The notes under the pieces: model-generated
What the model was told of the DNA's origin: nothing
What the model saw: the letters and a program-made list of their open reading frames with translations, nothing else
The model's database searches: none
Assembly: GCA_000934665.2 (NCBI GenBank)
Contig: KZ538233.1
Coordinates: 1 to 64,000, forward strand
Direction: 5' to 3'
DNA from: Catajapyx aquilonaris
Lineage: Eukaryota
DNA length: 64,000 nucleotides
Translations under genes and position numbers: made by a program
Shown: positions 4,401-60,538 of the stretch, one piece after another
How the letters are laid out: the number at the start of each line of letters is the position of its first letter
Numbering within the stretch: position 1 is the first letter of the stretch

Positions 4401-7400
4401 TCCTTCCCAAAGCTGAAGCAGGTGCCCTTTGAGAAATCGAGGCCAACGGGATAGTCTACCGACTGGCCAAGGCTGCGAAATACTGCCACTTTTGGGTTGC
4501 AGCAACAAATTTTTTTTTTTTGTGCACGCTCACCCCCTCAAGGCAAGTCAGGTCAAAGGGTTGAAGACGTCATTTCAAATGTCTTTATTGGACATATCCG
4601 CCTGTTGCAACCAGTGTGTGGGACGATATTGTACCACCCAGTTTAAAATCCGGGTCACGAAAAAAAATAACCCCTGAAAAATTCGCCGAATGGCATCAAT
4701 GTTGCAATTAATTGGACATACGTCAGCAATTTCACCTAAATTTTTTCTCTCTCCAGATGTCCAACGCCTCGTGGCAACATTCCTTTTAAACTTTTCATTG
4801 GCAACCAAGTGACCTCACTTTCACCGCTCGTCCGAAAGAACCGCATTCAATTAGCTTCTTTTGCCACTGTAGGAAATGACATTAACCGTATATACAGTAG
4901 TTTAAAAAAATGCCGCCTCGATTCACCTTTATCCGTTTAAATTTCCGGCTCATAAAACTCTCCGAGGTGAACTTGTACCGCCCCATAAAAGTTGGGAACA
5001 TCGCTGTCAGCATTGTATGCATGACGATACAAGATGCTGACAATTAGTATAAGAGCGCACTTTGCTAAAAAAACATCCATCATCTAAGTGGCCAATTTAC
5101 ACCCAATTCTCCGACAAGCACGAATGGTCCATGGTCACACCTCGGGGCTATTCCTGACCTTTCTGTTCTCCCCTCCTTGGGACTTGACTCTATGTTGCGG
5201 TGGTTCAGTTCTCAAAAAATTCTTCGGCACTTTATTGTAAGACAAGGGAAGGTCTTGTTGGTTACCCCGCTGGTTGAAAACATTTTTCTGTGCACAAATA
5301 AGCAGATTGACCTTCCATTGACCTTTGTTGCCCCCCCCGAGTTTAGTTTGTAATAAATGAACCGAACCGCCCCAACGCAACTGAGTGTTTTGTCCCGTCT
5401 TCCCATCTTCCCTAGGGTCCCGGCCAGCTTCTTCCACTTCTTCGGCGGTCAGCAGAGACTCCCAGCAGCAGTTGCTGGTGCGGTACCTCCTGAGCAGGCT
5501 AATCACTCCTCCTGCTACCCTCCGTCCACCGTCCCCCCTGGCACCCACCACACCAATTCCTCCAACCCAAAGGAAGCTGCCTCTACCACCACCAGTACCC
5601 AGAGCCAGGAAGATCACCCCACCCAGGCTGTACCTCCAACACAACCAGAAGCAGCCGGAACCAGAGTACGACGACCAAGACCAAGATGACCACTACCAGG
5701 AGTACGACTATGACGAAGACAGGCCACCAGATGAGGAAGAGGAGGAAGACAGTGGTGGAGGACACCACCAACCGGATGACGACCCCAGTTCGACCCCCAG
5801 TATATGGGACAAAATATGGGTTCGGGACAGGAACAGACCCAGGCATTTGCCTAGGACGTTACCAGGGCTGAACCGGTTGTTGGGGGAGATACAGCAGGAG
5901 TTGGACGCAAATGCGAGCAGGATCCAACACCATCAGGGTGACGAAAGGAAGCTGCAGGAAGAGGAAGTGTGGAGGTGGAGGGGTGGTTGGGAGGAGGATG
6001 AGGCAGTGCTGCAGGGCAATAGTTGGGGTGTCCCACGGGGCAGGGACCACGACAGGGATCCTCAGAGTGGACATGAGACTCAGGATGCCTACCATGTGGT
6101 GTTCCCTCCATTCAGTTTCGACGACAATTCAGGTACCAAATAGCAGAGTTGGGAGTGAACCACTGCTTTAGGACACACCCTTAACCTCTTGCCCTTTGGC
6201 CAAGGTCTTAAGCAGTGGCCTAATTATACACATTGCATTCCGACCCACTTTATAAAGGGCGGGGTCCGCACTATTTCACACTATTTTCCAAGCGCAAAAT
6301 GTCACGTTCATGGTAGCAGTTTAATAATTGTCCTTGAATCGTATATTTGGCTGCAAGTCAAACAAAACAACATCACTGCCAATTACCGCCCATGAATATC
6401 CAAAATGGCAGGCTGACATTTCCGAGTTTGATTGGCATGGTGTGCGGAAGTATAATGATGACAGGGATATGCATTGACCTCACCTTTAAGATCAGGGTCA
6501 TTTTTATTACGCAACTTTGAAAAAAACAAACGTGGCATTTAGGACCGAAAATATGAACCCGACTGGCAAGTTGGGTTGCATAACTGCCAGGAGACACTGG
6601 GTGTGTCGTCTAAGAATACAGCTAAAAAGAGGGCCACCTTGGGCCAGTCGCAGCAAGGGCGTGGTGACCTCACCCCAGGTCCAATACAAGGTCACTGTCA
6701 CATTTTCCCCCAAAATTCACACAAAATTTTTCGTAATCATTACGTAAGGGATTGCAGTAATTAAGGCGAGCAGGATATAAAAGTAAAACGGGATCGGTTC
6801 CAGTAGCTAGTCGCAAGTCACCAACAAAAAGCAGTGCATGATTGGTGATGTTTCTCAAGAATCCTGCTGTGTGCAGATTTTACTGCTCAGCAAGGTTTCC
6901 CTTTCTCTTGCAGTCTTGGCCGGTCTTGGCCAATATTCAAGTTCCGCGTGGTGTTGGATGATGATGATGAGGAATACCGCACCATCAAGCTGGACTGTTC
7001 CTCACCTTGGCATTTACAAACAATAAAATATATATTTCCTCCAAATAAATATATTCGCGATTTTTAAAAATATTAAATTGCCCCACCAAATGTCACTGCA
7101 GCCAAATGACCCGCAGCCAATTGTCCGGCAGCCATCACTGTCCTTTCACCGTCTGGATCTTCCACAAAATGGGCTCATATATTTTCATCCTTCAGATGCA
7201 CAACATGATTTATGATGTACGATTGAACAAAATAGTCTTCCTGGAGAGTGAGGTCTTTTCATATGGCTGCAGAAGATGCCTTTTGGTTTTACGAACAAGG
7301 TCCTGGCAGGGAGGAATTCGAAGGTGTGCAAAAATGGTCGTCCTTGAGAAGTTGCTCTTCTCGAGCCTTGGATTGCAACGGGGTGAAAGCGAGAACGGAC

Positions 7401-10020
7401 AGGTTTTCTAAGGGGTCGGTACCGGTACACTCTGTGACAAGCGCATAGAATTAAAAAAACCCTCTGGGCCAAAAAATAGGCCCTATAATGGTATTTGCGT
7501 GCTGAAAATTGATATCACCGTGGCCGATCGGTATGTCGGCAATGAAAGTGTGCAATTATCCCGTTTGCTAGAATTTTTATGCTTGAAAATTTTCGTGAGT
7601 GACATAATCCCCCTCTAGGTGCTGGGTGTACATACTGACTTGCTACCTTGAATTGCAGGTTGCGCCAACTGCATCGACGATGGTTCCAGTTCGGCGGCGG
7701 CCAAATGGACCATGCCCTTCGTCAAACTAGGAGACAAGCGATACTACCTGGGGATCTTCTTTAAGGTGGGAAATATCGAAATGTCAGAGGTCACCAGGTG
7801 GCCCTCTCGCTTTCACTTGTACAGATCTTAGTCGGTCGGGGGCCGCATTCCAAATATATTCGCACACACATTTTTTACTAAATTCGCAATGACCTTACGC
7901 ACCCGGAAAAGCCCTGTTGGGTATGGCCCCGGACATAACCTGCAATCGGCAGGCAATAATTCCACCTACCTGCAAGCAACGGAATTTGTCCTTCGTATAT
8001 ACTAGTCTGCAATTAACTCACAATTTTGTGCGTTATCCTACACAGAAAAATGTGCCCACATTATTCTGTAAAGGACAACACAAAAAAATTGTTTGTAGCA
8101 ATTAGCGATTTCACCATTGTACAATCATCATTATTTCGTAGTGCACGCCTCTTTTCACTCTTTTTTATTGTTTTGATGATTACGTTTTAGTCGCACTTTC
8201 GGGCCCTGTTTCCTATACCGCACCTCTCAGGCGCCGTTTCAAATCAAATGATGTCAAAATGGCATTGTTGCGACCGCACCTATCTTCCCCGTCACACCTG
8301 GCTTTGAATGCATGCTGCAATTTTTCACCGTTGCACCAACACACTGACATAAAAGTCTGCCTAAATTTATTGACGCTATAGGACAGATAAAATATCCTGT
8401 TCGCAAGGCACTAATGTTCGGTGTCGGTGGCAATTCGGGTCACTTAAAATCGTTATCGGACGGAGATCCAAGTGCTGTCAAGATTTTACCGCCCAGATCA
8501 AACGCATTTTGAATATCTAATTGTTGGGGGCAAGAATCACAGTCCGACGCATTTTCTGCTCAGATTAATGGCCAATATTTCGCACCATATAAATTCCTGG
8601 GTTATAAGTAAACGACTTGCGTAACAGTCTGGGACAGGAAAGTTAAACATTGTAGCCAAAACAAATTAGGAACAATATTGCGTGTCTTTCATGGAACAAA
8701 GTGGAATGCAAAGTAACCTAAGGCTTTACGGAGCCAAAAGCACCCAAGGCAGGTTGAACTAGTTAGAATGGAAATCCAATCACTCAGTTACGTAGTACAT
8801 GTCGGATCACTTTCATTACCTCCCCTCAAGTGTCACTAATGTCCTACCAAATATTGCGAAACAGAAATGCGCATATGTGCATATGTAGTTGCCTAACATG
8901 CGCCTGCTTGCTTGCACCTGCACGCTTGGTTTATTGGTTACTGGACGCTACCACCAGATGCCTCTCTTCCTCCTCTTCCCACGCTGCTTTGCTGGTAACG
9001 GTTTTTCCACTGGCGGTTGGACCATGGTATAAAGCGGCTATGTCTTTCCAGGCAAATTGGCATCGCGCCCAACAGTTCTGCCGATATCATAGTCTAGAGC
9101 TGGCCAGCATAGACAACGCAGAGACGAACAAGCTTCTCCAGGACCATGTAACCGAGCAAGGTACTCCTCGTTGGCGGTACCTCCTACTTCCTTGCCTATC
9201 CCATCCTTCTAACTCGGGCAGATAGGCGCGGATAGACGCGATAGTATGGCGCCTCAGAGACGGAAACGGGGCCTGACGATAGTGCAGGGGAACTGTTGAA
9301 TGACAAGTAGGTCGTTTTGCAGGCCAACTGGTTCAAAGGAGCTCAGTACTGCCGTTACCACGGGATGCACCTGGCTAGCGTAGAGAGCCAAGAAGAGAAT
9401 GAAAGGCTCAACAAATACATTCAAGACTTCGGTAAGTAGATGTGTATACAAGCCCAGCAGCTATTTGCACGAAAAGAAAGTGGACAAATATCGCCATAGA
9501 GGCATCAAACTAATTGATCGCTTCGGAAGGTAGGTTTCCTTTTACTTTGAAGCATGGGTCATGTACTGCATGGTATTGCCCAACCTTATGTCGAAACAGA
9601 TGTCATAAAGCTAGGCATGCGGCTTCAACAACCTCCGCGTCAAGAAAGTCATCCTTACTTTTTTTTAAAGCATGTTTACACTCATTGTCAGTTTTAACAA
9701 CGCCCCATCCAATATTAACACACGAACCAAAAAAGAGAGACATAAATCCTATTCTAACTCAACGCTCTTGTCCAGGGCTTGGTCACGAGCACTTCTGGAC
9801 GTCGGGAACCGATCTGGCCGAGGAAGGCAGCTTCTTCTGGATGGCCACCGGCCGACCTTTGACCTACACCAACTGGAACGCAGGAGAACCCAACAACTTC
9901 CGTTACGAGAACGGCGAGGAAGAGAACTGCCTGGAACTATGGAACCGAGATGGGAAGGGCCTCAAATGGAACGACTCGCCGTGTTCCTTCGAGACATTCT
10001 TCATCTGCGAAATCGTCTAA
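1387..10020 (+). CDS. Secreted single-domain C-type lectin (EPN/WND, mannose-type), conserved insect-type CTL (resembles Drosophila CG9134 from memory)
   Basis: Exons 1387-1495, [5416-6132], 7659-7765, (9052-9160 or 9323-9431), 9776-10020. All GT-AG with matching phases. 428 aa with exon 2, 189 aa without. CTLD: KRYYLGIFFK-ANWFKGAQYCRYHGMHLAS...FWTSGTD...WNAGEPNN...ENCLEL...KWNDSPC...FICE. Confidence 0.92.
3861..3893. repeat. (GTT)n/(GCT)n compound microsatellite next to an A-rich tract
   Basis: ttgttgttgttgctgctgctgttgttgttgttg seen directly. Confidence 0.8.
5416..6132 (+). CDS. C-type lectin exon 2, Pro-rich/acidic low-complexity cassette (239 codons)
   Basis: Acceptor tcttccctag|G, donor TCAG|gtacc, phase 1-1, open in the frame of ORF 5385-6143, joins exon 3 in frame. 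Confidence 0.7.
7659..7765 (+). CDS. C-type lectin exon 3
   Basis: aattgcag|GT...AAG|gtggg, encodes CANCIDDGSSSAAAKWTMPFVKLGDKRYYLGIFFK (start of the CTLD). Confidence 0.9.
8193..9285 (+). promoter_or_regulatory. Long-range intronic complementary pair (8193-8237 with 9246-9285) flanking exon 4A, candidate docking/selector splicing structure
   Basis: 8199-8213 pairs with 9262-9276 (15 contiguous bp, 2 G-U). 8224-8237 pairs with 9246-9259 (13 of 14, 1 G-U). 8193-8197 pairs with 9281-9285. All colinear and antiparallel. Confidence 0.65.
9052..9160 (+). CDS. C-type lectin mutually exclusive exon 4A
   Basis: tttccag|GCAAATTGG...CAAG|gtact, 109 nt, ANWHRAQQFCRYHSLELASIDNAETNKLLQDHVTEQ, paralogous to 4B. 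Confidence 0.85.
9323..9431 (+). CDS. C-type lectin mutually exclusive exon 4B
   Basis: ttttgcag|GCCAACTGG...TTCG|gtaagt, 109 nt, ANWFKGAQYCRYHGMHLASVESQEENERLNKYIQDF. Confidence 0.9.
9776..10020 (+). CDS. C-type lectin terminal coding exon (EPN and WND motifs)
   Basis: tgtccag|GG, GLGHEHFWTSGTDLAEEGSFFWMATGRPLTYTNWNAGEPNNFRYENGEEENCLELWNRDGKGLKWNDSPCSFETFFICEIV*. AATAAA at ~10180 and ~10676-10696. Confidence 0.95.

Positions 10021-16351: not shown

Positions 16352-60538
<44,187 letters not shown>

Follow-up and report, generated by a model that had tools for sequence, protein, structure and literature searches.

Organization of the Lectin Gene and Its Exon Pair

The window analyzed here is a stretch of 64,000 nucleotides (nt) from Catajapyx aquilonaris, comprising positions 1–64,000 of contig KZ538233.1, and positions 7659–10020 of its forward strand contain the last three coding positions of a gene for a secreted C-type lectin of the EPN type. 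The middle one of these positions is occupied by two adjacent, homologous exons, here called 4A and 4B, which on the evidence of their sequences are probably a mutually exclusive exon pair. The coordinates of all features of the gene discussed below are collected in Table 1.

Table 1. Coding Exons of the C-Type Lectin Gene, with the Intron Inside the Exon Pair
Feature	Positions in the window	Strand	Description
Probable large upstream coding exon	5416–5754	+	Proline-rich, then acidic; boundaries inferred only
Exon 3	7659–7765	+	107 nt; ...CANCIDD...KRYYLGIFFK; CxNC motif and first strand of the lectin domain; ends in phase 0
Exon 4A	9052–9160	+	109 nt, phase 0 to 1; diverged alternative copy
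Intron between 4A and 4B	9161–9322	+	162 nt
Exon 4B	9323–9431	+	109 nt, phase 0 to 1; canonical copy
Last coding exon	9776–10020	+	245 nt including the stop TAA at 10018–10020; EPN at 9886–9894, WND at 9967–9975

Exon 3, which is flanked by the splice sites ttgcag/GTT and AAG/gtggga, is matched by five insect orthologues in tblastn searches (E 5e-05 to 1.5e-11), and the introns that follow it up to the last exon are 1286, 162, and 344 nt long. The last exon shares 86 to 90% identity with 11 insect orthologues, and 87.5 to 91% with three dipteran orthologues by tblastn. A protein search with the 4B stretch retrieved 38 insect proteins (E up to 1.8e-11), all of them carrying the Pfam domain Lectin_C, from Diptera, Hemiptera, Orthoptera, Blattodea, Hymenoptera, and stick insects. 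One of these, P0013 from Eurosta solidaginis, is labeled “tfc isoform X2”, and is 87.5% identical to the window gene in the last exon and 70.7% identical over a 41-residue alignment with 4B. The motifs ANWFK, TDLA.EG, and EEENC are common to the window gene and three dipteran proteins, and do not occur in the other proteins read; on this ground, the source of the gene would seem to be dipteran-like. Taking high lectin-domain identity and the same exon structure as the criterion for the tfc orthologue group, both of which we find in the window gene, this gene corresponds, as judged from its sequence, to the insect gene annotated by NCBI as tfc in Eurosta.

The probable upstream coding exon lies in an open frame at 5385–6143. 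Its acceptor (ccctag/G) would lie close to 5415 and its phase-1 donor possibly around 5751–5754, and it is loosely similar to the QQI..YLERRL and acidic stretches of the dipteran orthologues P0004 and P0010. We note that this candidate was not recovered when the 64-kb window was searched by tblastn with insect orthologues, and that the first exon of the lectin gene was not found.

Both members of the exon pair are preceded by AG and followed by GT (ttccag/GCA...AAG/gtactc for 4A and ttgcag/GCC...TCG/gtaagt for 4B), begin in phase 0, and are stop-free, with one base left over at the end. The encoded peptides, ANWHRAQQFCRYHSLELASIDNAETNKLLQDHVTEQ for 4A and ANWFKGAQYCRYHGMHLASVESQEENERLNKYIQDF for 4B, are identical at 14 of 36 residues, and the exons at 56 of 109 bases, whereas the flanks of the two copies agree at 31 of 116 bases, which is the chance level (Fisher p 0.0002 against the exons). 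In tblastn of insect orthologues on the 64-kb window, 4A is matched with E 1.4e-07 to 7e-10 and 4B with E 1e-15 to 3e-17. An earlier note on this DNA had described two stop-free, homologous exons of 109 nt in phase 0–1, and the splice boundaries, the shared residues, and the tblastn matches all bear this out; the homology between 4A and 4B is, in these comparisons, beyond chance.

As each copy is 109 nt long, only mRNAs with exactly one copy keep the reading frame. Exon 3 joined to 4A and the last exon is open to the natural stop, as is exon 3 joined to 4B and the last exon. The neighboring junctions proposed earlier, at 7765 and 9776, are the right ones. It had also been proposed that including both exons or neither shifts the frame, and this is what we find: with 4A and 4B together a stop is first met inside 4B, at residue 90, and with neither exon at residue 64. 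In neighbor homology, equal length, equal phase, and usable splice sites, the pair agrees with what is expected of mutually exclusive exons. As to the pyrimidine tract, 4A has the better one, with 11 of 16 positions as compared to 8 of 16 in 4B. As a side observation, the frame of 4A is open over 152 codons (window 8767–9225, forward strand), 95 of which lie upstream of the exon within the intron, and we take this to be due to chance.

4A-Type Exons in Other Insects

The nearest relative of 4A that we identified comes from a damselfly: the protein P0191 of Ischnura elegans (NCBI “C-type lectin 37Db isoform X2”) is composed of exon 3, followed by ANWYKANRFCRFHGMQLASISSAEENQLLEDHVKAQ, followed by the last exon, and is a complete in-frame lectin, with 21 of the 36 residues of its middle exon (58%) identical to 4A. 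Two gene models from the mayfly Cloeon dipterum, P0138 and P0190, have exon 3 joined directly to a 4A-type exon, and end as read-through in the following intron. The Ischnura protein and the two Cloeon models belong to the same gene family as the window gene, have the same exon boundaries, and carry the KANR or LL..DHV..Q features together with the terminal Q. They differ in that Ischnura and Cloeon represent orders distant from that of the window gene; the Ischnura comparison covers isoform X2. Among 89 unique exon sequences, the terminal Q and the LL pair that 4A shares with the 4A-type exons are found in just 5 and 4, respectively.

When metagenome contigs were scanned with the last exon, 80 loci were retrieved. 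Of the loci L001 to L064, 53 contain a match to exon 4, many of these 53 being spliced transcripts. Two copies are present in one of them only, L027, where the first copy (328–436) and the second (689–797) are both 109 nt long, are bounded by AG and GT, and stand in the same order as in the window, with an intron of 252 nt between them and the last exon 911 nt after the second copy. The first copy, ANWYKANRYCRYHGMHLASIDTEEENKLLQETIADQ, differs from the exon of the two Cloeon models at 3 of 36 residues, and the second is of the canonical type. Exon 4A shares 20 of 36 residues with the first copy and 15 of 36 with the second, and the states ID...NKLLQ are common to 4A and the first copy.

No second copy was found in the genomic loci with 2 to 10 kb of sequence upstream of a single exon 4 (L043, L046, L047, L050, L052, L053, L054, L060, and L064). 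Among the metagenome transcripts, each of the 29 pairs with last exons at least 95% identical had the same exon 4 or was without exon-4 data. Separately, exon 4 is continuous with the last exon in one frame (…DFGLGHEHFWTS) at L050:4936 and L059:2672, that is, the intron has been lost, which makes an exon swap impossible at these two loci.

An exhaustive HMMER search with 4A returned 188 hits with E ≤0.001, with multi-domain lectins at the top, and as no single-stretch hit exceeded 66% identity, no close orthologue of 4A was found in it. The scan of genome contigs gave bacterial and archaeal lectin-domain loci only, at 30 to 72% identity, and no insect contigs. We also observed, in P0184, an exon-4-like open frame, ANWYRAAQHCRYHGMELASINNQEENDKLIEALETL, the first half of which is canonical and the second half odd, with 66% identity to 4A over residues 1–29; this may be another kind of alternative copy.

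Part of the Lectin Domain Encoded by the Exon Pair

The peptides of 4A and 4B cover positions 4–36 of the Pfam Lectin_C profile (PF00059), and the last exon, which scores 33 bits, covers positions 40–106, including EPN and WND. Splicing of one copy or the other would thus swap the N-terminal third of the domain and keep the sugar site constant. When scored alone against the profile, for which the curated cut-off is 22.6 bits, 4A lies above it at 23.4 bits and 4B just below it at 21.5 bits. Each of the two exons encodes one cysteine, and the last exon three. The EPN and WND motifs correspond to a preference for mannose or glucose, which is accordingly the specificity predicted for the window lectin.

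In the AlphaFold model of the Ischnura isoform P0191, the exon-4 residues 87–122 form two helices with a short strand between them. This model is poor, with a mean predicted local distance difference test score (pLDDT) of 49, and of 55 to 71 in the exon-4 stretch, and we use its secondary structure with caution. The earlier note proposed that the N-terminal part with its helices is replaced and that EPN and WND stay constant, and this agrees with the Lectin_C positions and with this low-confidence model. By sequence, the nearest solved single lectin domains are those of mosquito mosGCTL-1 (PDB 9t9z) and of carbohydrate recognition domain 4 (CRD4) of the macrophage mannose receptor (PDB 1egg), which have a C-type lectin fold like that of the window gene, and which P0191 matches with E 4e-22 and 1e-15, respectively, over the exon-4 and sugar-binding parts. 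They belong, however, to subfamilies other than that of the window lectin.

Constraint on Exon 4A and Its Origin

Exon 4B shares 81% identity over 36 residues with the dipteran protein P0010 and groups with the canonical exons, and is, in terms of sequence comparison, a deeply conserved canonical exon, a point that the earlier note had not brought out, any more than the membership of 4A in an old alternative class. Exon 4A has diverged from it extensively: the synonymous difference between the two is 0.84 (saturated) and the nonsynonymous difference 0.41, and the differences by codon position number 17, 11, and 25. Where 88 other exon sequences agree in at least 90% of cases, 4A keeps the conserved state in 11 of 14 columns, compared to 6 of 22 variable columns in which it matches the consensus (Fisher p 0.005); here, 7 of the 14 conserved columns are fixed by the pattern with which the rows were collected, and 4A keeps 4 of the remaining 7. 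The residues W3, C10, LASI, and L29 are all present in 4A. An unconstrained exon drifting over such a long time should have lost frame, length, and splice sites alike, and as 4A, which is free of indels and stops, retains all three, it looks like an old and well-kept spare copy rather than a decayed one.

As to the origin of this copy, a quick tree of 89 rows places the four 4A-type exons together (Shimodaira–Hasegawa-like approximate likelihood ratio test, SH-aLRT, 79), but we consider this tree unreliable because constrained searches reached better likelihoods. Topologies were therefore compared in IQ-TREE on 37 chosen rows and 36 columns, using the approximately unbiased test (p-AU). The free tree has a log-likelihood of −917.46 (p-AU 0.621), and a tree constrained to a clade of 4A-type exons costs 0.76 log-likelihood units by comparison (−918.22, p-AU 0.62). 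Making 4A the sister of 4B costs 13.5 units (−930.95, p-AU 0.041), and placing 4A inside the dipteran canonical group gives −927.87 (p-AU 0.136). A shared old origin of the 4A-type exons is favored by these comparisons, and a recent private duplication of 4A is disfavored.

A number of observations nevertheless weigh against an old alternative exon that is still in use. Of the two donors, that of 4A (gtactc) is weaker than that of 4B (gtaagt), and is off the donor consensus at three of six intron positions. The bias of the 4A–4B differences across codon positions is marginal (chi-square p 0.06). The residues G14, M15, and E25, which are kept in all other 4A-type exons, are lost in 4A, and this could mean relaxed constraint. 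The terminal branch of 4A, at 0.48 substitutions per column, is the longest in the tree, as compared to 0.22 for 4B and a median of 0.03. A single two-copy locus among 53 implies that the pair is patchy in its distribution or arose more than once. The tree, which has only 36 columns, does not reject a placement of 4A among the dipteran canonical exons. Finally, a 42-residue stretch around 4A had no match among longer proteins; this search is uninformative, as the best 4B hits themselves reach only 71 to 73% over 41 residues, such that the window species seems to be absent from the collection and the blank for 4A is weak evidence. Relaxed constraint or recent disuse of 4A is possible in light of these points.

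The weak donor, the long terminal branch, the loss of three otherwise conserved positions, and, weakly, the failure to find a protein with a 4A-like stretch would all be expected if 4A were a former alternative exon that is now unused or mere splicing noise in this lineage, i.e., a pseudoexon early in decay, with protein being made from 4B only; the presence of two copies in 1 of 53 metagenome exon-4 loci would then mean that loss of the second copy is common. We consider this a possible but doubtful account. Despite fully randomized flanks, reading frame, exon length, and each of the four splice dinucleotides of the pair are intact, 4A scores no lower than 4B on Lectin_C, and substitutions in 4A avoid the conserved columns; given these intact features and kept columns, any decay would have to be very recent. 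If 4A is unused, it would be an ordinary leftover of exon duplication.

It is also conceivable, if unlikely, that 4A goes back to an independent duplication of the canonical exon, specific to the dipteran-like lineage of the window, with its likeness to the mayfly and damselfly exons due to convergence or long-branch attraction, in which case it may still work. The small number of columns in the tree, the p-AU of 0.136 for 4A within the dipteran canonical group, the long branch of 4A, and the patchy distribution of the pair are in line with such an origin. The sister relationship of 4A and 4B is disfavored in the same tests, however, and convergence would also have to account for a terminal Q that so few exon sequences possess, for the ID...NKLLQ states in common with the first L027 copy, and for a copy order that matches that of L027.

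Taking both sides into account, we favor, with some reservation, the reading in which 4A functions as an alternative exon in this species, its use being supported comparatively by the L027 pair, the Ischnura isoform, and long-term constraint. A much more tentative extension of this reading, which we would put forward only as a speculation, is that 4A and 4B form an ancient switch that predates the split of mayflies, damselflies, and flies, in which one sugar site is combined with an exchanged helix face and, along with it, a changed oligomer state or partner, and in which the 4A form has been missed in most insect annotations.

Proposed Mechanism of Exclusive Use

In the mechanism that we propose, 4A and 4B would be mutually exclusive exons derived by tandem duplication in a dipteran-like orthologue of a conserved secreted lectin (tfc in Eurosta). 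Each copy would encode the first helix, the second strand, and the second helix of the lectin domain, together with the cysteine that pairs with a C-terminal cysteine, and exon 3 and the last exon, with the EPN/WND calcium and sugar site, would be common to both isoforms. Messenger RNAs with both exons or with neither would meet early stops and presumably be removed by nonsense-mediated decay, such that the simplest account of exclusivity is that it is imposed by the reading frame and by decay of the out-of-frame mRNAs. Exon 4B, with its consensus donor and deep conservation, would be the default form, and 4A an old alternative with a weaker donor, the inclusion of which probably needs a regulator or activator. 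The resulting 4A isoform would keep the sugar site and present another helix face, and thus probably have a different partner or oligomer state; the isoforms may accordingly differ, as the earlier note suggested, in surface or partner binding rather than in sugar specificity.

Judged by minimal intron sizes, an intron of 162 nt is long enough for ordinary splicing, and argues against steric exclusion between the two exons. Nor did we find convincing competing RNA pairing in the introns of the window, where the only pair is one of 12 nt between a T-run and an A-run; the fold of 9140–9335 shows no significant structure (z −0.98). A scan for long-range duplexes between intron 1 and intron 2 gave −112 kcal/mol, compared to −94.5 ± 4.5 kcal/mol for 60 shuffles, but the duplexes are unphysical and filled with bulges. 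In L027, we observed an inverted repeat of 17 nt with 94% complementarity (438–454 and 561–577), which folds better than shuffled sequences (z −2.13). Its first arm begins a single base past the donor of the first, 4A-type copy, and could hide that splice site. This pairing has no counterpart in the window.

A mainly regulatory role for 4A, in which its co-inclusion with 4B (with the stop at residue 90) or read-through to the stop at 9223–9225 (compare the two Cloeon models that end as read-through after a 4A-type exon) yields truncated or decay-targeted mRNAs that lower lectin output, strikes us as highly improbable, as a poison exon has no need of fold residues, and yet 4A keeps W3, C10, LASI, and L29 and matches Lectin_C, and the Ischnura isoform is a complete in-frame lectin.

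Other Genes in the Window

Elsewhere in the window, large open frames at 16624–22362 on the reverse strand belong to a gene whose product has a DUF676 lipase-like domain (first Atlas hit 0.97, with DUF676 in 100% of members), which has long, low-complexity exons rich in serine and proline, of 635 and 571 residues. Open frames at 32071–33673 on the forward strand resemble, from their translation, a membrane receptor that has seven helices and a long inner loop.

Comparison with Known Systems

Tandem-duplicated mutually exclusive exons are among the few splicing events that reliably give two folded, working proteins. If both forms of the window lectin are made, one gene would yield two lectins that share a sugar site but differ in their surfaces, which would constitute a natural experiment on the role of the helix face in such lectins, and a reason to recheck insect annotations that list the canonical form alone.

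In Drosophila melanogaster, the C-type lectin tfc (triforce, CG9134) affects abdominal pigmentation, which is altered by its mutation or knock-down (PMC4416719). The window gene has the same domain type, with the likeness measured on the Eurosta protein P0013 rather than on the D. melanogaster protein, and the passages of PMC4416719 consulted here report no alternative exon 4. Our literature search, which did not extend to supplementary exon catalogues, found such an exon pair described neither for CG9134 nor for a C-type lectin domain.

Mutually exclusive exons that arise from tandem duplication are themselves well-known, with criteria for their prediction set out in PMC3228551 and human events described in PMC9741552, and with Dscam1, Mhc, and the nAChR alpha6 subunit as examples from insects; what is new here is the gene and the domain. 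The window pair resembles the known members of this class in that the exons are adjacent, homologous, equal in length and phase, and compatible in their splice sites, in that one structural module of a domain is replaced, and in that the frame survives only if a single copy is included. It is unlike them in that exclusive use would follow from the frame, with a 162-nt intron that gives no sign of steric hindrance and no clear pairing of docking and selector sequences.

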